Positions 698 through 56,900 of a DNA stretch of 64,000 nt are shown one piece after another. Every line of letters begins with the position of its first letter. The stretch's first letter is position 1. The stretch is from the NCBI RefSeq assembly GCF_038025025.1, contig NW_027117353.1, forward strand, positions 310,001-374,000, given 5' to 3'. The notes under the pieces were generated by a model. It saw only the letters and a program-made list of their open reading frames with translations. It was not told where the DNA came from and did no database searches. Made by a program: the position numbers and the translations under genes. This DNA comes from Phyllosticta citribraziliensis. Lineage: Eukaryota.

Positions 698-1148
698 ACA
701 ATCAGGGAGGTCTTGTGAATGGAGTGCGATAGCCGGGAAGGGAGCAAGAATATGGGTACCACAATACTAACATGCTTCGGCTTGCTTCTTGGGATGGAGC
801 GTGTGACCGTCTTCGTCTGGCGGTGCGCCCACATCGGCGAGCCTAGATCACATCTGACAATCGTATGTCATCTCTTTCTGAATGCACTTGAAAAGGAGCT
901 GTTGATAGGGATTTGCTTTTTGGTCAACAACAATGTATATGCTGTTAAAGGCGCGTTGGCACTTGGCCAAAGGTTGAATCGAACAATCAACACGGAGCGA
1001 AATTCAGATAGCAATTTCGATGATAACGGAACCCGATATTTGGTTTGTAGTGAAGGCTTTTGTCGCGTGAACGAAGGGTGGTTGGTCGCCCGCTTCGGTC
1101 GACGTGGACAATACCAAGGGGGCGCGACAATACTAACGCAGGAACAAT
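698..1148 (+). promoter_or_regulatory. Cluster of eight same-strand ACAAT (HMG-box-like) motifs upstream of the pheromone ORF
   Basis: ACAAT starts at 698, 761, 857, 930, 983, 1108, 1127 and 1144. Three are AACAAT, and ACAATACTAAC occurs identically at 761-771 and 1127-1137. SOX/MATA-type HMG domains bind (A/T)ACAAT or AACAAAG cores. Confidence 0.55.
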
Positions 1149-1332
1149 ATCAACACCATGCCAAGATGAGAATCACCGTTGATTCTTTCAACGCCACCAC
1201 TTCATTCCATCCGACAGACAAACCCTCGACCATCCAGACCCTCCAAACTCTTTGTTCGTAACCTCGGACGCAATCAGAATTGCCATACTCGACCCAAGGT
1301 CTTGCTACTGCAGGATGGACTCCCAGTTCGAG

Positions 1333-1338: not shown

Positions 1339-1515
1339 TCTCGCTCGACTTCGACGACCAGAGACTTTTTTCTTCATCCCACAACTTCCAACTCATTTCC
1401 AAACCAACTTTCCAAGTAAGCCATCCAGCGAGCCTTCTCTCCTGATCTGGCATCATCTGCGGGGCAATCACTCACCAGAGCAAACAGGTTCTCCAACTTC
1501 AATCCAATCGCTAAA

Positions 1516-1722
1516 ATGGTTTCCCAAATCATCGCCGCTCCCGTCAACCAGGGCTCCAACGTCGACATGTACGGCTGCACTGTCCAGAGCAACGAGCCCG
1601 TCAACCGCGGTTCCAACGTCGACATGTACGGCTGCACCGTCCAGAACGCTGAGCCCGTCAATGAGGAGAAGTTGATCCGCAAGGGAAAGCTCGTCGACAT
1701 GTACGGCTGCTCCGTCATGTAA
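1516..1722 (+). CDS. Repeat-containing a-class/hybrid-type lipopeptide pheromone precursor (68 aa, C-terminal CAAX CSVM)
   Basis: MVSQIIAAPVNQGSNVDMYGCTVQSNEPVNRGSNVDMYGCTVQNAEPVNEEKLIRKGKLVDMYGCSVM*. It has no signal peptide, a terminal CAAX box, three VDMYGC(T/S)V(Q/M) copies and strong C-ending codon bias. Differences between the repeats include synonymous ones. Confidence 0.8.
   Translation: MVSQIIAAPVNQGSNVDMYGCTVQSNEPVNRGSNVDMYGCTVQNAEPVNEEKLIRKGKLVDMYGCSVM
1540..1710 (+). repeat. 57-bp coding tandem repeat (2 full units plus a diverged third) within the pheromone ORF
   Basis: Units lie at 1540-1596 and 1597-1653. The 18-nt core GTCGACATGTACGGCTGC is identical at 1561, 1618 and 1693. 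Confidence 0.95.
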
Positions 1723-1794
1723 ATCTCCCCACACGACGACACTGCACCTGCGCAACGCTGCACCGAGTAGTGTGCGGCCGCGGCGGTCCCGGAT

Positions 1795-2011
1795 GACTGG
1801 TCCCTCTTCTCTTTCTCGCGCTGCTGCTGTCGTCTGCTGCGCTCCTCGCGAATCCGACTCGACCCTTTCGGACGGCTGTCATCCAATAGTCTTTGCGGAT
1901 ACGGTGTCTGACGAGCCCCTGTCGGATACGAATCCGCCTTTTCCGCCTCGTTCGGCGCGAAGGGGCTGATTTGAGCGCTTCTTTTTCGACACTAGCAGCG
2001 GCGGACCAGTC
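1795..2011 (+). other. Nested multibranch RNA secondary-structure element in the presumed 3' UTR of the pheromone gene
   Basis: Nested complementary pairs: 1795-1803/2003-2011 (9 bp), 1819-1825/1994-2000, 1828-1832/1987-1991, 1839-1844/1973-1978, 1846-1850/1956-1960. They enclose three hairpins, some with G-U pairs on the + strand. Confidence 0.6.
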
Positions 2012-3159
2012 TCTCTCGACTTTCTTCCCCTCTGCGACCAACCATTTACGACGAACACTTTTGCGAAGACCAAACACCTAGAATACTCAAAAACAACCAA
2101 AAAAATTACGGCTTGGAAAACCTCTCTCCCCCCCCAGATTGGAAATCTGTTGGACTGGCGCCCGGCGGTCAACCCCCCTTCTTGTTGATATTGGGATCTC
2201 ATAAAATTCAAAAAAGAAACAACCACGGGCGCCATCTTCTTCTTCTTGGAAAAACGACAAAACTTTTTACTCATAGGAGATGCCGCTGCGATTCTCGAGT
2301 GCGGGTGTATGCCTGCGCTTTTTTTTCTTTTTTCGGTTGGTCGGGCTTGTTTAGAAATCTCTTCCTCATAGATAGATGGATGAATGGAGTCCTGTCCTGC
2401 TACCTGGCTTGTTCAATGGTTTGTGAGTGATGATGTGGTCGTGGAAAGGCGGTGTAGCTCAGGGCGAGCGCCGTGACTGGACGGGGATCGCAAGTAACTT
2501 GGTTTTGGCCAAGTCCTGGGCTGTCGTGGTGTCGATCTCGGACACGGCTTGACCACGCAAGATAAGCATCGATTGGAATCTCGACGCATCAGACATTGTT
2601 TCTTGGTGTTGGTGACGAGTGTCGATGCAAGTTGGAAGATTATGGCGCAGAGTAGAGACCAGAAGAGGGCCATGCAGGTGGGGGAGTCGGAAGCCGGAAC
2701 GTCGCGTTGATGGCTGGCTGGGGTCAGCGCCACGCCACGCCACGCCACGCACCACCAGGACCAGGACCAGGACCCAGGGAAGGGAGCTGTGCCACCCTTC
2801 TGTCTGGACCACCGCTCCCGCGACACTTTGTTTCTCGCAACTTGACCCATATAGTTAGACGGGCTGCTTGCCTGAGCCTCAACAACATCATCTTCTCCCA
2901 CGGCCACCCTCCTCGCCGGACCCTCGCTCGACTCTGCGTAATGTCGCGATAGCCGCCGCCCTCGTCCGCAGCACTCGCCGCCGCAACCCAGCAATTCCTC
3001 CGCCGACCTCCTAGGCCCCAGAATACCTAACCCCCTCGAATATCTTCTACCCACCGCTCCGCTCCTAGAACCAGACATCCTACCGAATCCTGCGTCTGCG
3101 TCCGCGCCTCGCAGCTCTGCTCCGGCAGCTTCGTCCTCCGCCCGCAGTCCGGCCACGCC

Positions 3160-5160
3160 ATGGCCACATTCGCATCTCCGTCGCCTCCATCCTCCCCCTC
3201 ATACGCAATGCCTCGCCGGAATTGGGCACGGAAGTGCGAGAGATATTGCTGCCGAATATTTGCCTACTTTCCGCTGTCAGTAGTCTACGGTCTGACGACG
3301 TGGGCGGCCTGGGTATGCTGGCAGATTGGGGTGCATGCTCCCAATACTCCATCCCATTGTAAGGACAATTTTTTCTGTTTTTTTGGTGCAGGACGGCAAG
3401 TGTTGCTATGAAGATTGGCATGCGCTTACGCTTCGGATATAGACTATGTGACTGCGCTGCTGGCGTGGTTCCTCTACGCATTGCTCAACTGGAGCTACAC
3501 TATGGCCGTCTTTACGGACCCGGGATCGCCTATTGATGGTGTCAAAGGCGGCTACAGCTCGCTGCCGACAACGGAGCAGTCGATACCGCACACGTCGTTT
3601 ACGGTCAAGGCGAACGGGGAGCTGCGCTATTGTAAAAAGTGCCAGACAAAGAAACCGGACCGCGCGCATCATTGCTCCACCTGCGGGCGGTGCGTATTGA
3701 AAATGGACCACCATTGTCCGTGGCTGGCCGCTTGCGTGGGCCTGCGCAACTACAAGCCATTTTTATTGTTCCTCGTATACCTGTCATTGTTCTGCTGGGC
3801 GTGCTTCGCCAATTCCGGCAGCTGGTGCTGGAACCAGTTCACAAACGATGACTATATGGACAGCTTCTTGCCCATCAACTACATCATCCTGGCAGTCATC
3901 GCAGGCATAGTCGGCCTGGTCATGACTGGCTTCACTGCCTGGCACGTCCACCTCGCCACCCGCAACCTGACGACGATAGAATCTCTGGAAAAGACGCGCT
4001 ACCTCTCGCCGCTGCGCAAGTCCTTCCAGCACTTTACGGCCTCGTCTCAGCGCAACTACGTCAACGACCCGCAGTCGCGGCCTTCGATCGGCGAACAGCT
4101 GCTCGAAATCCACGCCAACGCCCTCCCCGGCGTGACGCGCCCCGAAGAAGGCGAGGACCAGCGCGCCGTCTCCCCCGCGCAGCAGTCCCTCCACCGCAAC
4201 TGGGTATCGCTTGAAGCCGCACGCGAGCGCGACCGCTACAACGAATACCTGGACGAGCTCGACAGCGAGAAGCTGCCCAACGCCTTCGACCTGGGCTGGC
4301 GCCGCAACCTGACGCACGTGCTAGGCCCGGTGCCGTACCTCTGGGCGCTGCCCATCTGCAACACCACCGGCGACGGCTGGTACTGGGAAGCCAGTCCGGA
4401 TTGGATCGCCGCCCGCAAGCGCATCGCCGACGAGCGCTTCGCCGCCATGCAGCGCCAAAAGGCCCGCGAGCGCGCCGCCGGCTGGGGTATCGAGAGCCCC
4501 CCTGGCAGCCCCGGCGCCCCTGGGCAACCCCCTTCGCCCCCTGTCATCACGCGCACGCATCTCACCGCCAACCGGAACGCACCCACCGCTGATCCAATCA
4601 CCAACCGCTCCGGCTCGTCGGCGTCGCCGCCCCATCCCAGCTCCGCATGGCATAACCGGCCCCTGGCTGCGGCCGGCCGCAACACGCGCTTCCTGACGAC
4701 GAGCTCGGGCATAGCAGCCGTGCCGCGCGAGGGCCGCCGCTCGCCCAGCAAGGCTGACCAGATCCTGGGCCGCGCGCCGGGCCTGTACAGCGATGACGAT
4801 CCATCGTCGGCGGGGGCGGCGGCCAACGGCGGCGGCGCGGCAGTGCAGATGCAGGAGATGCGGAGGAGGCGGTATGATGATTTGTACGACGATTTGGACG
4901 ACGACGACGACGACGATGATGAAGATGAGGAGGAGGGAGATGGCGCGAGGCGCGCTGAGCTGGCGGCGACCAAGATGACCGTTGCGCCTGCGAATGGCGG
5001 CACCACAACATCGTCGCAGGCGCAGACGCAAAACTGGAACGACGTCCCGGCCGACATGGTGGCAGCGGCGGGCTCCAACAAACCAAAGACGTGGCGCGGC
5101 CCGCGCGCGCGCAGGAGAGAGGCCGACGACGAGTGGGACGATTGGGGTCCGTCGCCGTAG
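3160..5160 (+). CDS. PFA3: DHHC palmitoyltransferase, Pfa3-type (intron 3359-3442)
   Basis: DHHC-CRD CKKCQTKKPDRAHHCSTCGRCVLKMDHHCPWLAACVGLRNYK, with TTIE and NAFDLG motifs. A GTAAGG...ATAG intron joins the 3160 and 3415 ORFs in frame. Confidence 0.88.
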
Positions 5161-6291: not shown

Positions 6292-8565
6292 CTACTCGTC
6301 GTCATCGTCATCATCGTCATCATCAGCATCAGGGACGTCCGCCCAGCCCGAGCCCCACCGTCTCCCCTCGCCCTCACCACCACGCCTCAAGTCGCGCGCC
6401 AGCGCCGCGTCCTCGCGCCAGCAGCGCGCCGAGTAGTCGTCGCCGATGCTGACCAGGTCGCCCTCGCTGGTCCACGTCAAACTGGTGACTTCCTTGAGGT
6501 GGCCGCGGACGAGCGGCGTCCCGTGGTGCGAGAAGATGGGCAGCGAGTCGGCCATGCGCGGGCTCATTGGCGACGCGATGGGAGTGATGTCGTTGTTGCT
6601 GCTGCGCCGCCGCGACGCCGCGGCGTACGACGTGCGGTTGAGGAGGGACGTGGAGAGGAGAGACGAGCGCGCCGATGTGGAGAAGGTTTGAAAGCTGCGA
6701 GGCGGTTCGGCGTTGGCGGCGACCGCGTCGATGCGGCGGCGCAGCATCGTCTCGTCCGTGGGAAAGACGACTGGGCAGCCGTCGCTCGAGCCCACCGCCA
6801 GACATTCAACCTTGTCGCCGCGTGCCCGCCGCAGCGCCGTCTTGACCCAAAAGCTCGTCACGTGCAGGCGCGGATGGCGGAGGCCGTACAGGGGCCCGAG
6901 ACCGCATTTGTCCACGGCACCGCTGCGACGACGCTCGCTGGTGCGCTCGCCGAGTTCGGGCGCGTGGCCGAGCACCAGGTGGCTCGTTGAGTAGGCGTAG
7001 ACGGTGTTATCGCGGCTCAGGGCGTAGAGGCGGTCTCCGGCACCGGAAAAAGATATCGAATTGATGCCAAACTTTCGATGCTTGGAGTGCGATTCGGGCT
7101 GGCGGGTCGTGGCGATGGGGATGGCGCGACGGTTGTAGCGGCCGCGAATGTCCCACAGTTTGACGGCTGTCGAGGCTTCGGATGCGGTGACGAGGAGGTG
7201 TGAACGGGAGGGGAGGTTAAGAAAGGAGAGGGCAGTGATGGAGACGTCGCCGCGTCGTGAGTGAACATCGGATTTGGAGGCTGCGTCGCGGGTTGTAGAG
7301 GCCTGAGAGGTCATATTAAGCGTGTTGTTTGGAGCGTGTGCGCCGCTGATAACATTGTAAGTGCTAGCACACGTAACGCGGTGCAAGTTGTCTGATGGTT
7401 GGCCATCAAAGTTTGTCTGTAGGGAGTGAATTACACCTTCGGAACCTTTGCAGCGCAGGTCCCATAGCCGCACGGTGCCGTCACGACTCGAGGTTGCGAG
7501 GACATTATCATTGTCCGGTTGGAAGCAGACTTGCTTGACAGAAGACTGGTGGCCGTTCTGACCGCCCATGACATAGGTCGTCTGCTGGGTCCGGACGTCG
7601 ATGACATGACCCGTCTGGTCTCCGGATGCGGTGGCCAGCGAATAGTCATCAGACGAGAATGCAACGTCCATGACGGCATTGCTGTGCGGACGGAACTTGA
7701 CATGGGCTTGTGAGAATGGTGGTTTGCTGTCTTTTGCCGACTCTAGTAACATTATAGTCCCATCTTCGTCTCCAATTGCAACCATGGAATTTGCTGCAGT
7801 CCACGTTAGCTCGGATGGAAAGAATCTAAAGTAGAAGTACTCACTGTTGCAGCTGGCTGTGCAGAAAGGAATGTCGTTTCTGAAGACGTGTCTATCTTCC
7901 GGCCGGCTGCAAAAGTTGGCTGTCTGATCCTGCCACACCCCGCAGTGATCGTACATTCTGCCTCGACCAATGGCTCGACTACCGCCAAAGGAGCGCGATA
8001 GAATTCGGCCGGTCTGTCCAGAAATGGGAGCCCTCTTGATGGGTATTGGGGGAATATCATCCTCCTCGTCTTCTTCTAGAATGGTGGTTTCGGCATCGGA
8101 GGCCACGTCGTTGGAATCTGGAAGGTCGAAGGTGACGGAAAAGCCATGCTCTCTTGGCCTCTTGGATGGGGAAGGCTGGATGGGGGAGCTTTCAGGGGAC
8201 GGCAACAGCTTCCGCTTCCTGTGGTGCTCGACTTTTGGGGTGGAGTAATTCTCCTGGCCGGGGACATGGCTGTCGGAGAAGACGACGGTTCTCCTGGGAG
8301 TGGGCTTCTTGCGATTGATGGCATTACGGGTAATGTCACGCAGCTGGCGGCCGGACGAGGAGTGGGACGTGTTGCTTCTGGTGGTCCGGGGAGTAAAGAA
8401 CTTGTTGAATCGCTTCGGGGTGATTGGCGGCGGCTTCTTTGGCTTTCTCGAGGCTGGTCTCGAAGACGGTGACGAGGGCGGCGGCGGAGACGAGGCAAAG
8501 GTCTGCGAGGAGGGAGGGAGGTCCTCGTAGGGCATGGCGGAGGGTGGCGACGATGGCAAGTCCAT
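6292..8565 (-). CDS. CDT2: WD40 protein, Cdt2/DTL-like CRL4 substrate receptor (51-nt intron 7794-7844)
   Basis: WD repeats HSNAVMDVAFSSDDYSLATASGDQT, LATSSRDGTVRLWDLR and GHLKEVTSLTW follow a S/P-rich N-terminus. The GTGAGT...CTAAC...CAG intron restores CNTNSMVAIGDEDG. Confidence 0.78.
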   Translation of the reverse strand: MDLPSSPPSAMPYEDLPPSSQTFASSPPPPSSPSSRPASRKPKKPPPITPKRFNKFFTPRTTRSNTSHSSSGRQLRDITRNAINRKKPTPRRTVVFSDSHVPGQENYSTPKVEHHRKRKLLPSPESSPIQPSPSKRPREHGFSVTFDLPDSNDVASDAETTILEEDEEDDIPPIPIKRAPISGQTGRILSRSFGGSRAIGRGRMYDHCGVWQDQTANFCSRPEDRHVFRNDIPFCTASCNSEYFYFRFFPSELTWTAANSMVAIGDEDGTIMLLESAKDSKPPFSQAHVKFRPHSNAVMDVAFSSDDYSLATASGDQTGHVIDVRTQQTTYVMGGQNGHQSSVKQVCFQPDNDNVLATSSRDGTVRLWDLRCKGSEGVIHSLQTNFDGQPSDNLHRVTCASTYNVISGAHAPNNTLNMTSQASTTRDAASKSDVHSRRGDVSITALSFLNLPSRSHLLVTASEASTAVKLWDIRGRYNRRAIPIATTRQPESHSKHRKFGINSISFSGAGDRLYALSRDNTVYAYSTSHLVLGHAPELGERTSERRRSGAVDKCGLGPLYGLRHPRLHVTSFWVKTALRRARGDKVECLAVGSSDGCPVVFPTDETMLRRRIDAVAANAEPPRSFQTFSTSARSSLLSTSLLNRTSYAAASRRRSSNNDITPIASPMSPRMADSLPIFSHHGTPLVRGHLKEVTSLTWTSEGDLVSIGDDYSARCWREDAALARDLRRGGEGEGRRWGSGWADVPDADDDDDDDDDE

Positions 8566-8685
8566 GATTGCACCTCGTGTCCTAGTGGGCTATCTTCAAG
8601 AAATGCAAGGAGAAGAGATGGTGAGCGAGGTGGAAAGGTCAGAAGAGCCGGTTGGGGACATGTGGATGGGGTCCACCTGCAGAGG

Positions 8686-8756: not shown

Positions 8757-9114
8757 AGGAGTGGTTTAATGTCGTGTTGTTGTTGCAACACAGCGGGGAA
8801 GGACGTGCTGGAAAAGGGGCCACGACGTGTCAAAGAGCCAAGCCGTGCAGACAATTGTTCGACATGTCCAAGATGTTGAGCAATTGAAACGGTGTCCATG
8901 TGTGGCGCAGGTGGTCCAGGTGGCGTGAATCGCGAAAGCTTATCGATACCGACCTCGCGCTGGGAACGCGCTGTATCCGAAGACGGCCCGTCGGCGAATC
9001 CCATCGCCGCCAAATTTTTGGACCCATGGACCGAAAAGTTCAGGACTCTGTTGTAGATGCGCAACCACGCCGTCGAATCCGCGGCGCTCAACATCTTCCT
9101 CGTTCACCTTCAAA

Positions 9115-12100
9115 ATGGCTCCGGTGAAGCGTGGAGCCGACAGCGACCATGCTGGCTCCAAGAAGCAAAAGCACGCTGCCGACGACCGCGCCGCAAAGCG
9201 CCAGCGCAAATCCGACCCTGCACCCGCCGATGCAAAGACGCAGCCCGAATCGAAGACCGACAAGCCTGTCCCCGTTGCTTCTGTGCTGACGCAAGAAGAG
9301 CGCTCATTTCCTCGTGGCGGAGCGAGCGTCTTGACTCCTCTTGAACACAAACAAATTCAAAACGAAGCAACTCGCGATGTTCTCTTTGAGCAGTCCAACA
9401 AAAAGGCGGCCAAGGGAGATGAGAGTGACGACGATGTGGAAATGGGAGATGCGGGGGCCGACAAGGCCGCAAAAAAGAAGAAGAGCAAGAAGCGCAAGAG
9501 TGACGTTGGAAAGGAAAAGGAGGAGGGCATCAAGATTGAAAGTCTGACCCACAAAAGGCTTCAGCCAGGCTCAATGGTCCTCGGTCAGGTCACGCAAATT
9601 ACTTCCAAAGACGTCCAAGTTGCGCTACCGAACAACCTCGTCGGCTTCGTGCCCCTGACTGCCGTTTCCGACCAATTCACACAGAGGATAGAAGCATTGC
9701 TGGGCGAGGGTGACAAGAGCGACGCCGAAGATTCCGCAGACGAGGATGACATTGACCTCAAGGATGTGCTTAGGCTCGGACAGTATGTTCGTGCGGTAGT
9801 CACCTCCACTGGAGACGACTCGGCTCGCAAGAACAAGAAGCGCATCGAGCTGTCGATCAACCCCAAGGACGTCAACAGCCCCATATCGAAGCAAGATTTG
9901 GTCGTCAATGCCTTCGTCCAGGCCTCGGTCGCTAGTGTGGAGGATCACGGTCTTGTCATGGACCTCGGTCTGGCAAGTGGCGCCACCAAGGGTTTCATGT
10001 CCTCCAAGGAAGTCGGTTACAGCGTCGACTACAACAAGATCCAGCCAGGTGCTGTCTTTTTATGCATGGTTACCGGATCAAGCTCCAACGGAAAGATTGT
10101 CAAGCTCTCTGCCGACGCACAAAAGATTGGAAACGTCAAAAAGGCCAACGTATTAACCGTGGCACCCACAATCGATGCTTTCCAGCCTGGTGCAGCTGTT
10201 GATCTCCTAGTCACCGAATCAACCTCCTCAGGCCTAGCTGGCCAAATCATCGGCATGCTTGATGCCACCGCCGATATTGTGCACGCGGGTGCCGCTGAGA
10301 CGCAAAAGGACATTTCGCAAAGATACAAGGTTGGATCCAAGGTCAAGGCAAGAATCATCTGCACATTCCCGAGTGACGACCGCCGCAAACTTGGTGTCTC
10401 CCTCCTCAGCCACATCATGGCACTATCCCCTCGTCAGCCCGCCGACGAGAAAAAGGAACCCCTCGAGCTTTTGCCAGTTTCCTCCATCATCGAAGAAGCA
10501 AAAGTAACGCACGTGGAGCCGATGCTTGGCGTCTTTCTCGATGTTGGTATCAAGGGCGTACCTGGCTTCGCCCACATCTCCAGGCTCTCTGACGACAAGG
10601 TCGACTCCATTTCCGCACTCAGTGGCAAGTTCAAAATCAGCTCGACTCACCGTGCTCGTGTGGTAGCGTACAACCCACTCGACGGGCTCTTCCTGATTTC
10701 GCTTGAGAAGAAGATCCTGGAGCAACCCTTCCTTCGCGTCGAGGACGTCAAGGTTGGCCAGGTCGTCAAGGGCAAAGTCGAAAAGGTCATGATTACTGCC
10801 GTGGGATCTGGTGCTGTGATTGTGAACCTGGCCGAGGGCATCAATGGCGTTGTCTCCGAGACCCAGATTGCCGACGTGCAACTTAAGAATCCTGAAAAGA
10901 AGTTCAGGGAGGGCATGCCCGTTACTGCCAGAGTCCTTGCCATTGACACGGACAGGAGAAAGATCCGTTTGACTTTGAAGAAGACATTGGTCAACTCCGA
11001 GGCGCCGGCTTGGTCCTCTTACTCCGAAGTCGAGGAAGGGGACTCAGCCCCGGGCACCGTTATCAAATTGATGCCTGCAGGTGCTCTCGTCCAATTCTAT
11101 GGCAATCTCAAGGCATTCCTGCCTGTTGGTGAGATGAGCGAGGCCTACATCAAAGATCCTTCGGAACACTTCAGAGTTGGCCAGACAATCAACGTCCATG
11201 CGATTTCCATCGACGCCGAAAACGACAGGATGACCGTCTCGTGCAAGGATCCCTCGGCCCACAGTCCAGAGCAACAGGCCGCCTTCCAGGCACTTCAAAT
11301 CGGCAGCGTCGTCAAGGCTGCCGTGTCTCAGAAGTCAGTGGAACGTATTGATGTGGAGCTAGAAGGGTCCTCGATCAAGGGCATCCTGAGAGTCGGTCAA
11401 CTCACTGATGGTTCAGAGAAAAAGGAGGAGTCCATGGTGAAGAGAATCCGTGTCGGCCAGACCCTCGAAGACCTTTTGATTTTGGATAAATCTGACAAGA
11501 GACCCATTGTCTGGCTCACAAACAAGCCCAGTTTGCTTGCCGCTGCCAAGTCAGGAACTCTGCCTAGCAAGTTTGAAGATATCCGCGAAGGTCAGACTGT
11601 CAACGGCTTTGTCCAAAATGTTGATGGCCAGCGTGTCTTTGTCGAATTCGCTGGTCGCCTTCGCGGCGTGCTCCTCAAGACGCAAATGCCGCAGGAAATG
11701 GCCGACAAGGCCGATTACGGACTGCGTTCTTTTCAGTCAATCACAGCACGAGTTCTTGTCGTGGATGCAGCAAAGCAAAGGTTTTTGCTTACCAAGAAGG
11801 ACGAAAAGGACGCGGCTGCCTCCATGTCTGCACCTAGGAACGACAAGGCCAACAAGAATCTCGTCAATCCTGCCGACGAAACGATCAAGGATGTCTCGGA
11901 GTACACGCTTGGAAAGCTCACCAAAGCGCGGGTCACGAGCGTCAAGGAAACTCAGCTCAACGTCGCCCTCGCGGACAATGTGCTTGGTCGCATCGACATT
12001 TCGGAAGTGTTCAGCAAGTGGGAGGACATCAAGAACCGCAAGAACCCCCTCGCGCAATTCAAGACCAAGCCCATTCTGCCCGTTCGGATCATTGGTGTCC

Positions 12101-14592
12101 ACGATGTCAAGAATCACAAGTTCCTTCCTATTTCGCACCGCAGTGCAAAGACATCAGTCTTTGAAATGACGGCGAAGACGGAAACGGAGCTTTCCAGCGA
12201 GGACGACCTGCTCTCCTTGGATAAGCTCAAGGTCGGCTCGAGTCACATTGCTTTTGTAAACAACATTGGCGAAAACTGCGTCTGGGTGCATATTTCGCCC
12301 GTCGTCCGTGGCCGCATCGATCTCATGGATCTCTCCAACGATGTTTCGCTGCTCAGTGACGTGGCTGCCAACTTTCCCATTGGATCGGCTCTCAAGGTTC
12401 GCGTCAAGAGCGTCGACGTCTCGGCCAACCGCCTTGATCTCACTGCCACCTCGGACTCGGTCGTCAAGCCTACTAGCCTCAAGGACCTTTCCCCCGGCTC
12501 GGTGCTGCCTGGCCGAGTGACCAAGGTCAGCGAACGCAACATCATGGTTCAACTGTCTGACAGCATCTCTGGACCAGTCACTCTGACTGAATTTTCCGAC
12601 GACTACGCCCAAGCAAACCCTACCATCTACAAGAAAAATCAGATCGTCCGCGTCTGTGTTCTCGAAGTAGATGCGCCTAACAAGAAGCTGGTCCTGTCTA
12701 TGCGTCCCTCCAAGATCCTCAGCTCTTCGCTGCCGGTCAAGGACCCTCACGTTGCCAACATTCGCCAGCTCAAGGTCAACGATGTTGTGCGTGGCTTTGT
12801 CAAGAACGTGGCCGACAAGGGTCTGTTCGTCTCCCTGGGTCCCAATGTTACCGCGTTTGTTCGCATCTCCGACTTGTCAGACTCTTACATCAAAGACTGG
12901 AAGTCGGCATTCGAGGTCGACCAGCTGGTCAAGGGCAAGGTCATTTCGCTTGATCCGGCGCTCAACCATGTGCAGTTGACCCTCAAGGCGAGCATGCTCG
13001 ACAAGGACTACGTTGCACCTCTTGCCTTCAGCGATCTCAAGCCTCGCATGGTGGTCACTGGCAAGGTTCGAAAGGTTGAAGACTTTGGAGTCTTTGTCGT
13101 CTTTGACAACTCCAACAACGTCAGTGGACTGTGCCATCGGAGCCAAATCGCGGATCAGCCGGTGGAAGACTGCAAGAAGCTGTACAGTGAGGGCGACAAG
13201 GTCAAGGCCGTTGTCTTGAGCGTTGACCGTCAAAAGCACAAGGTCAGCCTTGGTCTCAAGGCCAGCTACTTCAAGAATGACGACGAGGAAGAAAGTGAAG
13301 ACGAAGACGAAGACGAAGACGACGAGGGCGGCGTTGAAATTGAAGATGACAGCGATTCGGACGAGGATGCCATGGAGGGCGTCGAGATTGACATGTCCAA
13401 GGTCAAGGATATGGAAAGCAGTGATGACGAGGATGAGGAAGAAGACGAAATGGACGTGGATGAAAAGCCCTCCAAGCCCGTCAACGGACTCAGCACATCT
13501 GGCTTTGACTGGACTGGCGCCACTCTTGAGCAGAACAAGACTACCGCCAATGAGCACGATTCAGACGAGGACGCTGCTGCGCCCAAGAAAAAGAAGAAGA
13601 AGCCGACCATCGTCGAGGACCGGACAGGCGACCTCGATGCCAACGGCCCTCAGTCCGTTGCCGACTTTGAGCGTCTGCTTCTCGGAGACCCCAACAACAG
13701 CACCCTCTGGATGCAGTACATGGCTTTCCAAATCGGCCTCAACGAAGTCCAAAAGGCTCGCGAGATTGCCGAGAGGGCCCTCAAGACGATCCACATGCGC
13801 GAGGAGGAGGACAAGCTCAACATGTGGACGGCGCTGCTCAACTTGGAGATTGAACAGGGCGACGAGGAGAGGGTCGAGGAGGTCTTTGGCCGCGCGTGCA
13901 AGTACTGCGACAAGGAAGAGATCCACAACCGCCTGCTGAGCATCTACACGTCCACAGGCCGGTACCAGGCAAGTTAGCCCGTTCATCAACTTAACGAAGA
14001 CTTGAACTAACCGACGAAACAGAAAGCCGAGGACCTCTTCCAGAAAATGTCCAAGAACAAGTCCCTCACGCCCAACCCGTCCTTCTGGCTCAACTACGCC
14101 ACCTTCCTGCTTACGACGCTCAACGAGCCGGCGCGTGCCCGCGCCCTGCTGCCCCGCGCCCTGCAATCCATCCCGCCAAAGCCGCAACACGCGCGCCACC
14201 TCACCGCCAAATTCGCCGCGCTCGAATTCCAATCACCGCACGGCGACGCCGAGCGCGGCCGCACGGTCTTCGAAGGGCTCCTCTCAACGTACCCCAAGCG
14301 CTGGGACCTGTGGGACATGCTGGTCGACCTGGAGAAGTCGCTGATGAAGCAAGCCGGCAAGAGCCAGGGCGCCAAGGACAACGTCAGCAAGTTGTACGAG
14401 CGCATGGCGGGCATGAAGATGAAGGCTAAGCGCGCGCGCTTCGTCTTCCGCAAGTGGGCTGAGTGGGAGGAGAAGGAGGGCGGCAAGAAGAGCCTGGAGC
14501 GCGTCCGCGCGCTCGCTGAGGAGTATGCTGAGAAGCTGCGCAAGGCCAAGGAGGCTGGTGGCGATGAGGACGGCAGCGATGGCGACGAGTAA
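9115..14592 (+). CDS. RRP5: rRNA biogenesis protein Rrp5 (tandem S1 domains plus C-terminal HAT repeats; GC-AG intron 13969-14022)
   Basis: N-terminal SFPRGGASVLTPLE, many S1 repeats, an acidic linker, then PQSVADFERLLLGDPNNSTLWMQYMAFQ and FAALEF...GDAERGRTVFEGLLSTYPKRWDLW HAT repeats. Confidence 0.95.
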
Positions 14593-27176: not shown

Positions 27177-29151
27177 ATGCAGTCAACCACGGCTCCTCAG
27201 CCCACCACCATGGTCACGACGCCCGTCTCGGCCACGTCGCCGGGCGCTTCCACGCCTGGCCAGTCTGGTCAGAACGGCTCTGCGCGCCGGCCGCCGCGCA
27301 AGTCGACCCTGACGCAGCAACAGAAGAACCAGAAGCGCCAGAGGGCCACGCAAAACCAACTCATCACTCTCGAGATGGAGTTCAACAAGAACCCTACTCC
27401 CACTGCTCAAGTCCGAGAGAGGATTGCGCAGGAGATCAACATGACGGAGCGCTCGGTGCAGATTTGGTTCCAGAACAGGTTTGTCGAACCATCTCCAGAT
27501 CCTCCCGCACGCGACGCTAATCATGGCCCAGGCGAGCTAAGATAAAGAACCTCGCTAAGAAGAGCATCGAGAGCGGCGAGGATTGCAATGACATTCCAGA
27601 GTCGATGCGCCGGTACCTCGCCATGCAGGCGATGGAGTCGGGCAAGACCCTGCACCACAACTTTCTCAGCCGCGGAGGTGGCATGCCTTACGGCCATGGC
27701 ATGCTCCTCAACACCGATACGAGCTCTTCCAAAGTCGGTTAGTAGTGTACTCGTGTCTCACACCAGTGATACCTTGCTGATAGTCTTCAGTCATCCACCA
27801 CTTTGTTTGCCGCTCTCTCACTATTGGTTCATGGAAGCGCGTCGGGCAAAACTCGATGGATCTGGTCATCTTCTACTCCCCTGAGAAGTGCTGTGTGACC
27901 TATTATATCAACAATGACTCGGCAGGCTACAAGATCGAGTATCCCTTTTCATCGATCAAGAACATTTCTCTCGAGCTCGGAGATGCAAACGCCGCCGAGG
28001 GCGCATCGCCTTCTGGAGGCTTGATCGTGGAACTCATGCGACCCCCGAACTTCTTCATGGACTCCTCCGGCTCCGGTGGTTTCTACCAATGCGGCGACTT
28101 TACCGAGGACCAGCAAGCGTCTCAGGTCTTGGTGCACCATCTCGGCGGTTCACCCAAGGTTCTTAGTGGACAGCTCGCCAAGCTCGTCTCGCTCGAGTCT
28201 TTCCAGAACAGGCACAGCTATTACGACCCGAACCAGCTCGCCATGTCTGCCCCGGTTTCTCCCATCAATCACAGGCCAGCATCCCAGCCGAACCACTTCG
28301 TCCATCCCCACTCGGGCATGTATCACGAAAGTCCGTTTGAGATGCCACCACCTATGAGCGGTGGCGGCCATCTTCAGCCTCCTCCGGCCAGGGGTCACAA
28401 GCGTCAAAGGAGTCGATCGGTGCCTGTTGCCATGGATTTCTCGATGCTCCGACAGAACCCAATGCAGCCGTTCATGATTCAACCACCACAGACGTCGTAC
28501 CCGGCGTCCTACACCCCGATGCCGACGACGCCCATGCCGCAGACGCCGATCTCCCAGACCCCCATGTCGCAACCACAGGAAATCTACGCGCCGGTGCCGC
28601 AACACAGCATGTCTGGCCCTATCGGCCCCAACCTCAGCATTGACACTTCGGCTGGGTACGGCATGGACTTTAAACAATACCCGATGTCTGCAACCACGGC
28701 CAACTCGCCTTCCGAGTACGGCACGCCCGGCTTCTACACCTCGAACCCGGGACCAGACAACATGCCCCAGGCCACGTTCAGTACGCCGTACAGCAACCCC
28801 TACCTCTCCCCGCTCCCAGACCAAACTAGCATGCCTGCTCAGTCTGTTTCTCCCATGTCGGCCATGAGCCATCATGGCGACCCGATCATTGCGAACCAGT
28901 CGCCGCCCCTTACCTCGTTGGGGCGAGCATCTTCGGCGGATCTCTACCCGATGACACACGACAACGGCATGTCCGACGACACCGTTTCCCTCAGCGATAT
29001 GTATGCGAAGCAATCCTTGTCGTTGCCTTTCCGGTCGCCCATGGGCGACGAGAATCTTGACGATCTCGACATGTCGAATCTCGTATCGTTCGGCACGATT
29101 GACCCGTCAAGTCTCTCGCCCGGGCAACCTCAGCAGCAACCGACAATGTGA
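27177..29151 (+). CDS. Homeodomain transcription factor, RfeB/Phx1-like (introns 27479-27531, 27738-27790)
   Basis: Homeodomain [54 protein letters not shown], then the conserved block [12 protein letters not shown]...MDLVIFYSP...AGYKIEYPF and an [10 protein letters not shown] motif. Confidence 0.88.
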
Positions 29152-31499
29152 CCTGCGCCGCGGATATTCCTGCGGAAGCGCAATGCGCCCGAGCCCAAAG
29201 CTAATCCCTGGGATTGACCCGCGGTGCACTACATGTTAACAACCACGCCAAATTTTCATATACCCCTTTTCCAGCGGCATTTTGTGTGCGAGCTGTTTCA
29301 CGTGTCGTCGAGTAGTTGCCGCCAACAACTAATATCGTAATCGATCGAGGAATATCCCAGAATACCAGTTCTGGAGGTTTAAAGAGACCGGGAGGATCAG
29401 TGCCCAGGAAACCAGAGTTCGGCGTTTGCTTCGGATGGCTAGTTGAGGAGTGATGGGAAATGGGACAACACGGCCGGTACAGAAATGAAGTTGACTGCAA
29501 AAGGCGGACTGGCTGAGCCTGCGCCATCCGTACTTTTCATGGCTGAGCTGCGCTGCGCTGAAACATGGACAAATCGTGTTCAGTTTTTGGATCCAACTCT
29601 TCTGGTCTTGTTTTCTTTTCTACCGCTTCGACTTGTCAGCATACCGGGTTTTCGGCTGCTTTTGAGCCTTGTTTTTATTGCTGGTCTGCTGGTTCTACTT
29701 CTTCACTTCGTCTCCACCTCTTCTCCTTCTCCTTACAACCTTGAATCGCGAGAACGCGTGCCTTCGCTTTCAACATTTTTCTTTGTTCGCGTGGTCTCCA
29801 CACAACTTTTCTTCTCCTTGTCTACCGTGAGCGGAAGCCTTCTTTGCGGATCTCTCGAAACCTGCGGCACGCTCGGCGCACACTTTTTTTTCTCTTTTTT
29901 TCTACTCTTTCTTCTCTTCACATCTTCTTCACAAATTTTGGGAAATAACCTTCTCAAAGATCGTAGGGTGGGAACAAACTGCAATATCAAACATACATGT
30001 GGCAAAGATCTTTGGGCGTCACCAAACACACACCAGAAACGTCTTTTATTCTTTTTGCCGCCATACACGGAGGCGGGGGACAGTCGAGACGGAAGCCTGT
30101 CAATTGAGGACCCGTTTCGTTGGCTCTCTTGGTTTGAATTCTTTTCTTGTTTCTTCCTAAATGTGGTCGATTGGAGCCCCCCTTTTTTCAAACGCCGCTT
30201 TATTCTTTCTACTTTCCCATTTGTGGTTGTCCGAGGGGCCCGGGTGGACCGGGGAAAGCCGTGTGTCATCCTCCTCGTCCCCTTCTTCTAAATCCCCCCT
30301 CTACTACTCTAAACCTTGTTCAGGTGTTGTGTTGACGGAGTCGGTGTAAGAGTGCCCGGTGTGTTGTCTGTCTGTGTCTGTATTTTCTCCCTGTTTGTCT
30401 TTTGTTTTTCCTTGTGGTTTTGGTTGGGCTTTTTTCCTTTTTCTTTACATATACCTCCCGCTGCGCGGAAGAGTTTTATACCGTATCGTATCGTCTTACA
30501 AGGAAATTTTATTTCTTTGTCTATCTACCACTTACCTATCTATGGTCTGCTGTTGTCTCTGACGATGCGTGATGTAATGGATTGGATGGGACGAAAGAGG
30601 TGGGTTGACTGCGTATGTGAGCGGCGCAGTGACGTGGGCGTGCTCACCTCTGTCTCTCTCATCTACCACCACCACCACCACCTCACCATCCATGTCCCCT
30701 CAACCTCACCTCGCCTCTCCTAACCTAGCCTACCCTGGCCTAGCCTAGCAGCTGGCTAGCTGGTGGCCCTACGCACCAACGCAGGTACGACAGGACAGAT
30801 AGGGCTGAGGCCGTGGAAGGGTCCGTGGCCAAGTAGTCGCGCGAGGATTGTGCGTGGCGTGGGCATGGGCATGGGCGTGGGCATGGCATGGCATGGCGTG
30901 CGGGCGGCCGCGGCGTCCAATGCTAACCCGCACCACGCACGTCCCACATCCCACATCCTTACCTTTTGCGCACCAGCGGCGAGCGGCGGCGGCGGCGGTC
31001 GTCGGTCGGTCGGCCGGACGGTCGGTCGTTCGGCGTACTCGGTCGGGGTGAAGGCTGGCTGGCTTACTGGCTGGCTGGCCGGCTCGTAGATCAGGGGTCG
31101 GTGGTGGTGGTGGGCGGGTTTGGAGGCAGACCGAGTTCAGTTCGCGCGCCATCGAGGTTGCCGGGGGGAGTAGGTAGTACTGTAGGTATGCCTTTGTTTA
31201 CCTTTACTGGCTGGCTGGCCAGATTTGGACATTTGGATCCCTGCCTGTATACCAATACTCAGTGAGAGGGCGATCGATGCTGAGCGACGCGACACCATGC
31301 CATGGCGTTTGCGAACACGAGATTCTTCGCGCGCGAGCGCGCGCCTCGCTTTTGTCTTGCCGCTCGTTGTTTGCACTACATGGCTATGTGGTTAGCTCCT
31401 GGTTGGGAGGAAAAAGGATGTCGGTCGCGATGCATAGTTTGCTTTGCTTTGTTGGAAGGGCTTGCTTGGTGCTCCTCTATCGGGCGGCAGGTTGCGTGC

Positions 31500-44226: not shown

Positions 44227-44780
44227 TGGTAGGAGACAGTACTAGAAGAAGAAGAAGAAGAGGAGAAATAATGATAGTACAACAAATATCATTGGTTACA
44301 CCAAGAACACCCAGTCCGATTTGCAAACCCATGCCCATAATGCTAGAGCCTTACCCAATACTATCTATATATACATGTCCCTAAACAATGCCTTCCCTAT
44401 CCTACCAAAAACCAACCCACGACGCCAACGACATGCAAGCCCCGTCCTGTAATCCAGAAAGGAAGAGAAGAGAAAAAACGCCAGTCCAATCTGCTGCCGC
44501 CCGCTGCTTGCCCACCGACCCTTGGTCAATCCCCAATGAAGCTTCCCAGCAAGCCGAGAGCTCAGTAAGTAGGCAAGCAAGCAAGCAATGCAGCCAGAAC
44601 CAGACCACAATCCATTCCGAGCCCAGGCCTTCCAAAAACAAAATCGCCGAGGCCATGCCATGCCATACCATGCCAACCGTTAAACAAGAGTAGGAAACTA
44701 GACCAAAGGAAAAACAACAAGAAGGAAGAAAACGCCTTATTCTTTTACCGCCTCTCTCCCCCTCCCACACACACCCCCCT

Positions 44781-53910: not shown

Positions 53911-56900
53911 ATGGCGCCCGTTGCTCAGGTACGACTCTGCCAAATCCTTCTTCCTCGTCGCACCCGAACATGCGCTCATGTCTTATTCCACAGTCCCCAG
54001 ATTCGCCCCCGCTGCGCAAGCTTCTCGCGCTTGATAACGACTTCCCGACCTTCGAGGGGAAGCTCGACCAAATCGAGTCCGTCTTGGGAGACCCTGACGG
54101 CGCCAGAGACTGCCAACATGGACAGGCCCCGTCACTCTACTACAGAGGGAACCCCAGGACCGAATGGGTTTTGCGATGGCTATTGACCAAGCTCAAGTTG
54201 GATGACAGCGATGGCCCGGCCGCGCGCTCCTCCTGGACCGCATGGCGACTTTTGACCAGAACCATCCTCGGACTACCTCCCTCTGTATCCGCAAAGGCTC
54301 TCAGTGTGCACACCTTTCTGCATACCCTCGAGAAGACGCTGCAAGACAACTTTGTGGACAAGCGCTCGCCAAAAGAAGATTTCGAGTCCACCAAACCGAA
54401 GACCACCAAGCCGTCTAAAAAGAGAAAAAGAGATGGGACGTTTTCGTCCTCCCTAGAGCGCAACGACCCTCTGGCCCTTTTTGATGCAGTCGTCGAAGCA
54501 GCTTCTACCGTTGTCGACCTAGGCTTCGACAACCTCGATGGCCAGGACAAGTCTGTCACGGAATTCGTCAAATCCGCATTACGCGCAGACATTGCGCAGG
54601 CCGCTCGTCTCTTCGGACTCTGGCTCCAGTCTGCGCATAGGCTCATAGCACAAGAATCGCTCGAGGAACGACCAGATTTGCTGGCTCGCATTCTCCCTCA
54701 GATACTTCGTATTTGGGAGGCAAGTGTGCCGGACCAAGGTGGCGAGGGGCAAAGTTCAGCCGAACAATTCTCGCAACATTGCCTAGTGCCTGCGGTCGTT
54801 CTCCTGTCTGATGTCACCGCCAAATCTTCATGTGACGATGGCACCAGCAATGGGAGTCTGACCATTGAATCAAAGATAAGCTCTGTGCTGGAGACTCTTT
54901 TGGCAAAGCACATTTTTGTACCTGCTCGCGCCGTCTTCTTCGCCGATGCTGAAGGGGGACGCTTCAAGTCCAAATCAACTTCTGCTCAGCTCTTTGACCG
55001 CAGCATCTCATTTCTCCTCAACCCTTTACGCGCGGCTTTGGACGGCAGAAGCGCAAACGTAAACAGCCCAGGCCCATTGGACTCTGATAGGCGCAAGGTC
55101 TTTGAAATTGTTGCTTCCCTCATGGACGTCTGCATTCGTTGCTCTCAGCGATCAACGCCAAAGAAGAGGCTCGACGAAGCACCGTGGCTCCAAAACGCAT
55201 TCACTGGACTCTGCGATTGTATCGGCGCCCCTGTTTACGGTTCCGCTGGGAAAATCGACGGCGACCGGAGAATGGTGCTCGACCGCATGATCGACACTTT
55301 GGCAAAAAGGAAAGCTACCCTCGAGTCCGAAGTTTTGGCAAATGTTGTCAAGTTCTATTCTGGCATTTTCGCGGGCGAGGATGAATTTCCACAAAAGTTT
55401 GATCATCGACTTCTTGCGCGGATCATTGACTACGACTCGACCGTCTTTGTCAATTCGCCCAGCAGTAGCTCCCAGGATGACGAAGCATCTCTGGCTGATG
55501 CGATTTTCAATGCAGTCACGCATGCCAGCAAGTTGATCACGAAGAATGATGGCGTGCTCATGGACTCTGTTGTTCTCCCGCTGCTCAAAGCTTACGCGCA
55601 AGTTCGCGATTTGAAAGGATTCATTTCGCGCTGGTTCGCCCAGCTCAAGAGCATCGGGATCTCTTCCTTCTCCATGGAAAAGTCGATCTGGGCTCGGAAA
55701 GAGCTTTCCATCGGACTGCGCGAGGTTCTCGAGACGAGATTAACGGCTCGGCAGTTGTTTGACATGTTTAGCGAGTACTTGCAGCGGGTGTCAGCATGCG
55801 ACACAATGTCTAAGAGCGCGGAACTGAACGAGGCCTCGGCCAGTCTCATCGTCCTTGACGCGTTGGTGAGCGCTTTGCAATCGGACGACACCATTGCTTC
55901 GGTGCAAGAAGTGTTGAGGTCAATCCAAAGGACCCTCTTTTTCTTCACTGGCGTTTCAAAAGAACCTGCAACTGTTGCAAGGGCGTTGCGCATTGTTGCC
56001 AGAGTACATGTACTTCTTCGGCCTTATCAAGAAGTTAACGAGGTCAAGAATGCTGCCGAAAGAGTGTTGAAAAAAGATGGCAAAAGTGTCGTGGAAATCA
56101 TCAAGGCTGCTGAAAAGTCCGACGACGACGAAATTGCTGCCAGAGGCCAGGAGGCGTTCAACCTTGTTGCCACGCTTTGCAGCGACTTCATGGCGATACT
56201 GGACCTAAAGGCGCCCGCGAAGGACCTTTTCAACGAGTCTGCTGCTGTCCTCTTCCGTTCCAACGACAAGGTTTTGAAGAACATTACTGAAGGAGCCAAA
56301 CGTCGCCGCACCGAGGATTCTGTCGCCGTGGCGACTTCCCGCTTGGAGTCTTTCACACTCAATGCTGCGGCTGTTCTCACTCAGTATCCCAGTCTTCTGG
56401 ATTTACCTTCGCTTGATTCCCTAAGCGATCTCCTCAGGCTCTTGTTCTGGCACGCGTTTGGCGAATTCGCGGGGCATTTCGAGTCTTCGCAGCCCATGTC
56501 CTTTGGCCTAGTGTTCGAGGCCATGTCAGACATCATCCTTTCCATGCCATCGCACGACCTTAGGGATGTGCTCTTCACCGTGCTCTACGAAGGCTTGGAG
56601 CCAGAGAGCAAGCAAGGGAAATCGAAGGACGTGCGCCACCAGCTGCTTGCTTTCTCAGAGCTGCAATACCTTCGCATGCCGTTGTCGGCCATTAGTCGAA
56701 AGCACCGCGAACAAATCGTCAACCGCCTCTGCGAACTCTGCTGCGGTTCTGGAAAGAAGGGCCCTAGCAGCGAGGCACTGTTCAGGCATCTCAGTGTTCT
56801 AGTCAAACTCATGGGAGCTCCAAATGCAACCTCAGAGCTTGCAACGGACACCGACAGCCTATGGAATATTGCCCGGCTTGTCCAGAAGACGACCCCGACG

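Follow-up and report, generated by a model that had tools for sequence, protein, structure and literature searches.

Lipopeptide pheromone genes of filamentous ascomycetes present an old puzzle, in that their 3' tails are far longer than the frames they follow and, in Neurospora, damage to the tail has effects that are absent from the peptide knockout. In Phyllosticta citribraziliensis, a stretch behind the stop codon of such a gene is computed to fold into a compact, closed structure, and the question raised by this locus is whether the fold is an RNA element kept by selection or a by-product of the sequence in which it lies. If functional, it would provide a concrete, mutable handle on the puzzle. 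All positions refer to the window, that is, the whole stretch of DNA that was analyzed, 64,000 nucleotides in length.

The pheromone gene and its neighbors are arranged as follows:

1333-1338, + strand: TATAAA, probably a core promoter element for the pheromone gene, 178 nt ahead of its ATG
1516..1722, + strand: pheromone precursor reading frame, 68 aa, stop codon at 1720-1722 (by translation)
3160-5160, + strand: DHHC palmitoyltransferase gene, the next gene downstream of the pheromone gene (Pfam)
6292-8589, - strand: gene for a WD40-repeat protein (Pfam)
8929-13977, + strand: gene for an RRP5-like protein with many S1 domains (Pfam)

The 68-aa precursor (MVSQ...VDMYGCSVM) carries three copies of the motif VDMYGC(T/S)V(Q/M), which derive from direct repeats of 57 nt and 25 nt in the gene. 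The third copy forms a C-terminal CaaX box, CSVM, directly followed by the stop codon. Pfam returned no family above cut-off for the precursor, no candidate homologue was found among proteins of 37-119 residues, and a search for orthologues in metagenome contigs gave 127 pattern matches, none of which was confirmed. Judged by its sequence, the product is an h-type-like lipopeptide pheromone precursor (a-factor-like, CaaX-bearing). The h-type gene hpp1 of Trichoderma reesei likewise encodes three copies of a short motif with GC(T/S)V, the last of which is the C-terminal CaaX box. The h-type motif is given as (LI)GC(TS)VM in the accessible portion of Schmoll et al. 2010 (PMC3068285), and the copies found here, YGCTVQ, YGCTVQ and YGCSVM, keep the GC(T/S)V core but have Y instead of L/I, with the two inner copies ending in Q. 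Whereas the C-terminal CaaX copy of the h-type class is present, a single dibasic Kex2 site was found (RK in LIRKGK, before the third copy) as opposed to two in hpp1, and the second copy is preceded by a lone R, in NRGS; the Kex2 sites of hpp1 are described as not essential for its function in the same accessible text (PMC3068285). The precursor is also longer, at 68 aa versus 48 aa for hpp1. A requirement in male fertility is a further characteristic of the h-type class.

The position of the fold relative to this gene is:

1723..2306, + strand: probable 3' UTR of the pheromone mRNA, its end placed from RNA-library contigs
1795..2011, + strand: folded element, a closed domain of 217 nt, MFE -95.4 kcal/mol

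A first-pass annotation of this DNA had put the stretch on the sense strand behind the pheromone frame, and the translation of 1516-1722 (+) bears this out, with the element starting 73 nt past the stop codon. In fungi, poly(A) sites are usually found within A/U-rich stretches; none of these occurs between the stop codon and 1795, and A-rich stretches first appear at ~2085-2107 and ~2200-2225. Of the public sequencing runs that contain the stretch, four (X3, X4, X9 and X10) were compared with it. In the metatranscriptome library X3, one contig lies on 1513-1818 (3 differences), spanning the stop codon and entering the element by 24 letters, a second on 1921-2257 (15 differences, 4 gap letters) spans the element's 3' end, and a third, short contig lies on 2272-2306. 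Polyadenylation before ~1795, which would leave the element outside the mRNA, is thus indicated neither by the base composition of that interval nor by the X3 contigs. Because these cover 1513-1818 and 1921-2257, the element is probably located within a long 3' UTR of roughly 550-600 nt, and would make up the proximal-to-middle part of this tail of an h-type-like pheromone precursor mRNA. The contigs, which reveal neither ends nor strand and come from an RNA library that can contain DNA, document the presence of the element in RNA in part. X3 cover is absent on 1200-1512, 1819-1920 and 2307-2600, and these holes were not used to place transcript ends or processing. In run X9, the sole part of the stretch represented is a 153-nt contig identical to 1951-2103, which ends in an A-run at 2099-2105.

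Long tails of this kind have precedents. In mfa-1 of Neurospora crassa, as here, a short CaaX pheromone frame is followed by a long 3' non-coding region, and mfa-1-type 3' UTRs contain conserved segments. Our literature search found no description of a secondary structure for the mfa-1 region. Disrupting this region reduces protoascomata, whereas the full knockout leaves female fertility unaffected, as stated in the accessible part of PMC6562746, which cites Kim et al. 2002. Long 3' non-coding regions, which the first-pass annotation had noted for mfa-1-type mRNAs, are indeed in print for both a-type and h-type genes: the accessible text of PMC3068285 lists them for mfa-1, mf2-1, MF1-1 and ppg2, and gives for hpp1 an unexpectedly long 3' UTR of 347 nt with a further small frame, no structure being reported for this UTR in that portion of the paper.

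Nine stems had originally been read from the letters of the element. All nine are present where they had been placed and with the letters given for them, and together they make 58 pairs, 54 of the Watson-Crick type and 4 G-U (the latter within 1874-1879/1886-1891 and 1904-1912/1921-1929). The MFE fold of 1795-2011 (+) has 74 pairs, including 11 G-U, in which four nested helices (9, 8, 5 and 6 bp) would close a domain with three inner branches:

1795-1803/2003-2011, + strand: outer helix 1, 9 bp, pair probability 0.98
1819-1826/1993-2000, + strand: outer helix 2, 8 bp, pair probability 0.74
1828-1832/1987-1991, + strand: outer helix 3, 5 bp, pair probability 0.97
1839-1844/1973-1978, + strand: outer helix 4, 6 bp, pair probability 0.99
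1795..1844, + strand: 5' arms of the four outer helices, separated by C/U-rich internal loops
1973..2011, + strand: 3' arms of the four outer helices, inside 1972-2079, an interval skipped by the main contig of a relative (X10, see below)
1846..1898, + strand: inner branch 1 (MFE), stem 1846-1852/1892-1898 with hairpins 1853-1857/1868-1872 and 1874-1879/1886-1891
1904..1929, + strand: inner hairpin 2 (MFE), 1904-1913/1920-1929, 10 bp, 3 G-U
1930..1972, + strand: inner hairpin 3 (MFE), 1930-1934/1968-1972, 1936-1943/1959-1966 and 1944-1947/1954-1957

The nested multibranch arrangement proposed at first pass is therefore reproduced in its closed outline and in having inner hairpins, but its inner topology differs. 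Inner hairpin 3 takes the place of two of the proposed stems, 1846-1850/1956-1960 and 1895-1900/1932-1937, whose probabilities of 0.00 and 0.01 leave them no part in the fold. The other three inner stems of that proposal have probabilities of 0.29-0.38, with 0.29 and 0.34 for the two hairpins of inner branch 1, and the proposed structure as a whole scores -78.3 kcal/mol versus -95.4 for the MFE. The G-U pairs had been taken as a sign of pairing in the sense transcript. A preference for the + strand is real but only modest: the same pairs score -74.7 kcal/mol on the minus strand, 3.6 kcal/mol costlier than on the plus strand, and the minus strand has an MFE of its own of -88.9 kcal/mol, with a z of -4.23 (1/200 shuffles as good) compared to -5.45 on the plus strand.

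Pair probabilities of the outer helices were unchanged when the presumed UTR (1723-2320) or the UTR together with the coding sequence (1500-2320) was folded, and no MFE pair leaves the element. Because of this, the element behaves in the folding model as an autonomous closed domain in its UTR context. Once transcribed, 1795-2011 very probably folds as computed, which would gather ~217 nt of the tail into a single compact structure. Both the stems and the stable closed fold are genuine and probably form in an actual 3' UTR.

We then compared this stability with chance. The expectation that the stretch would fold better than dinucleotide-shuffled sequence held, with a z of -5.45 for 1795-2011 (+) and a fold that none of 200 shuffles equalled; when shuffling was confined to blocks of 217, 109, 55 and 36 nt, z was -5.81, -5.51, -5.16 and -4.90, each again with 0/200. 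In an RNALfold z-score scan of both strands of the 64-kb window, which collected local folds with a z of -3 or lower, 1791-2015 (+) was second of 500 local folds, at z -5.42. The top-ranked fold, 29022-29141 (+), had a z of -5.45 and several others were close to 1791-2015, which was the longest among the top-ranked folds of the real window. As a control at the level of the scan, eight copies of the window were shuffled within 1-kb blocks and one strand of each was scanned in the same way. The lowest z for folds of any length in these copies was -6.80, -5.78, -5.17, -4.75, -5.08, -5.20, -6.49 and -7.32, and for folds of at least 150 nt it was -5.72, -5.78, -4.19, -4.51, -4.60, -4.48, -4.95 and -5.28. 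A z of -5.42 or lower was thus reached in 4 of the 8 shuffled strands at any length and in 2 of the 8 (-5.72, -5.78) for folds of at least 150 nt. Since the shuffled copies match it, the second-ranked real fold is within chance for a 64-kb scan and not statistically exceptional, and stability alone does not single the stretch out.

Composition alone is expected to produce about one such long fold per 128 to 256 kb and, on a two-strand reading, a chance long fold this strong would be met a little under half of the time. The result is also of cautionary value: a z near -5.4 for a 220-nt fold is within the reach of shuffled sequence at that rate, and folds picked out of a 64-kb scan should therefore be backed by comparative data before being termed elements. 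Loci with a z of -5.0 or lower numbered ~six on the 128 kb of the real window and ~seven on the 256 kb of the first four shuffled strands. In a test superseded by the RNALfold scan, MFE was regressed on composition across 2560 unregistered 217-nt windows, which ranked the start at 1801 (+) ninth and placed the exact element at -4.2 sd. Among the other strong folds, the region 29004-29161 has a z of -5.45 on the plus strand (29022-29141) and of -5.36 on the minus strand, and it reads like the end of an open frame; strong folding on both strands suggests a near-palindrome. Further local folds with a z of -5.0 or lower were found at 7843-7917 (+), 28268-28357 (-), 55558-55676 (-) and 44489-44598 (-).

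Comparative evidence came from contigs of relatives that differ by ~2-5% from the window (X10 and X4). The differences considered are all 7 in the X10 contig on 1651-1950, the 6 listed of the 8 in the colinear X10 contig on 1921-2206, and the 11 listed of the 46 in the long X4 contig. Among these, five X10 substitutions fall within the element: 1799 G>A, 1904 G>C and 1912 C>T in the first contig, and 1993 T>C and 1996 C>T in the colinear one. Three of the five keep a pair, with 1912 C>T and 1996 C>T each turning a G-C pair into G-U and 1993 T>C turning a G-U pair into G-C. The other two break one: 1904 G>C opens the end pair of hairpin 2, and 1799 G>A sets an A against a C halfway along the 9-bp closing helix, at a cost of 6.6 kcal/mol, worse than 98% of 651 single changes. 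No two-sided compensatory change is found among the five known X10 substitutions, in relatives only ~2-5% apart, and a compensating change at 2007 may lie among the X10 and X4 differences beyond those listed.

Taken together, the five X10 changes move the MFE from -95.4 to -90.2 kcal/mol, whereas 150 sets of five random substitutions gave a mean of -89.2 (sd 4.6), with 42% of the sets folding at least as well as X10. Because the X10 value is so close to the random mean, the natural variants act like random ones and give no sign of the shape being preserved. X10 and X4 share the same alternative letters at 1904 and 1912, which makes the window's perfect hairpin 2 probably the newer state; a recent perfect hairpin is what would be expected if the fold had been chosen for being extreme in one genome. 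Nor is the element better conserved in X10 than the rest of the UTR, with 3 substitutions across 1795-1950 (156 nt) compared to 4, plus 3 inserted letters, across 1651-1794 (144 nt).

A larger difference was found at the 3' side. The main X10 contig (depth 145.8) joins 1971 to 2080 and has no alignment over 1972-2079, the interval that contains all four 3' arms, whereas a minor variant (depth 46.6) is colinear with the window. The main X10 variant thus appears to lack, or to have replaced, all four 3' arms. X10 carries two variants of the locus, the flanks 1200-1326 and 2278-2505 each being present as two contigs with differing depth and difference counts. The stretches 1300-1588 (depth 181.7) and 1651-1950 (depth 175.9) are each represented by one contig only, so that both variants appear to have the pheromone gene and the start of its tail in common. 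A 20-mer of the element was also found at 15 loci in metagenome contigs, and was rejected as a chance hit, the blastn match being only 20-29 nt in contigs of 57-70% G+C.

With these results in hand, we lean, at a confidence slightly above even, towards an unselected fold in the tail of the pheromone mRNA, whose shape would follow from a UTR sequence that in this lineage is rich in G+C and biased to C/U, with no selection to keep it. We infer the absence of selection from the look-elsewhere control and from very few natural variants. The regulatory or processed-RNA role that the first-pass annotation had put forward finds no support here, since the stability is reached in shuffled windows, the variants are random-like and the main X10 variant is unaligned over the 3' arms. 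Several observations count against an unselected fold, namely that none of 200 shuffles did as well under each of five shuffling schemes, that the fold is the longest of the top-ranked ones, that pairing survives three of the five natural changes, and that the X10 variants, different in their flanks, are represented by a single contig over 1651-1950. In addition, perfect helix blocks are separated by wholly unlike loops, a pattern that would fit a kept structure better than a decayed duplication, and a separable function has been reported in Neurospora for this class of UTR (accessible part of PMC6562746). Unlikely in our judgment, although the strongest of the rivals, is the view that selection maintains the fold as a cis-acting RNA domain in the pheromone mRNA. 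Such a domain could be a platform for RNA-binding proteins that store, localize or translationally silence a very abundant message, or it could shorten the effective distance from stop codon to poly(A) in a message with a short frame and a ~550-600 nt tail, and so affect its stability. This would agree with a strong local z on the sense strand that is better than on the antisense, with the autonomy of the fold in UTR context, with RNA-library contigs on both sides, and with the three pair-compatible changes. It is opposed by a stability within chance at scan level, by random-like variants with no two-sided compensatory change among those known, by the break of the closing helix at 1799 in X10, by the unaligned 1972-2079 of its main variant and by the lack of a match to a known family. 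The remark at first pass that no family could be assigned was upheld: a scan against Rfam release 15 gave no match at gathering thresholds anywhere in the window and, on 1300-2700 at E up to 10, five matches (E 1.5-8.8) that were far below threshold and none of which overlapped 1795-2011. A functional parallel to such a domain, for which no homology is claimed, is the a-factor gene MFA2 of Saccharomyces cerevisiae, whose 3' UTR is a textbook case of a sequence that brings about rapid deadenylation and decay. According to the accessible text of PMC7650813, MFA2 mRNA is stored in repressed granules, transported in them to the mating projection and translated there; no folded localization element is named in that text. 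The reports of long tails together with the mfa-1 and MFA2 findings make a regulatory element in such a tail plausible by analogy, and our literature search found no description of a folded element in pheromone mRNA tails. We are somewhat more doubtful of the fuller proposal that the fold is a lineage-restricted regulatory module, which would compact the long tail and recruit proteins that keep the abundant message silent, stable or localized until mating, and would give physical form to the role, separable by genetics, that is reported for the 3' non-coding region of mfa-1.

Two further readings were weighed. The pairing could be a side effect of terminal inverted repeats belonging to a DNA-level feature inserted in the UTR, such as what is left of a foldback element, of a miniature inverted-repeat element or of a local inverted duplication, which we regard as improbable. 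Like foldback and MITE elements, the stretch is a unit of ~200 nt bounded by perfect terminal inverted repeats (GACTGGTCC at 1795-1803 and GGACCAGTC at 2003-2011, 9/9 complementary). Its outer arms are perfect Watson-Crick inverted repeats of 9, 7, 5 and 6 bp with no G-U, the minus strand folds well too (z -4.23), and the main X10 variant differs by a 108-nt block including the right arms, as an insertion or deletion would. Unlike such elements, however, it occurs once in the 64-kb window (the next-best blastn match spans 21 nt), shows no target-site duplication at its ends (the flanks, ...CCCGGAT and TCTCTCT..., contain no direct repeat), and has an inner 128 nt made of separate hairpins and not of one long foldback. 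The arms align only as short perfect blocks with unlike spacers of unequal length (15 vs 2 nt, 6 vs 8 nt), and for this reason do not resemble a diverged duplicate; on these sequence features, a transposon relic seems unlikely. GACTGGTCC itself occurs 4 times in the window versus 0.55 expected, and no copy of the element accompanies its further sites at 12571 and 43535. Least probable of all, and very much so, is a separate product, either a small non-coding RNA cut from the UTR or a second small protein from a 58-codon frame at 1793-1969 (+). This ATG frame falls within the 3' UTR and covers the greater part of the element, and a second frame in the 3' UTR was remarked for Trichoderma hpp1 (accessible text of PMC3068285), but it has no Pfam family, and the known substitutions within it fall at first codon positions (1799, 1904) and at a third position (1912), which is not a coding pattern. 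The small RNA is opposed by the lack of Rfam matches for the element, and contigs are unable to reveal the RNA ends that it would have. A frame on the opposite strand, 1879-2274 (-), has no Pfam family either. Beyond the four readings of an unselected fold, a selected domain, a DNA-level feature and a separate product, we leave a small share of probability to others.

The region upstream of the pheromone gene offers some observations of its own. A candidate 72-nt intron, GTAAGC...CAG, lies in the 5' UTR at 1416-1487 (+), and among the differences and insertions listed for the upstream contigs of X10 and X4, a cluster falls at 1430-1473, which would fit a weakly constrained intron. Farther upstream, GACAATAC is present in two copies 19 nt apart, at 1107-1114 and 1126-1133 (+), and occurs 3 times in the window versus 0.70 expected, a number reached by 3 of 100 shuffles. 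TCTTTGTT has one copy upstream of the gene, at 1249-1256 (+), and its 3 occurrences in the window versus 2.14 expected are not significant. Both sequences resemble binding sites of HMG-box proteins (mating-type or Ste11-type). On the downstream side, an acyltransferase gene, that of the DHHC palmitoyltransferase, adjoins a gene for a lipopeptide pheromone, and this may be coincidence.
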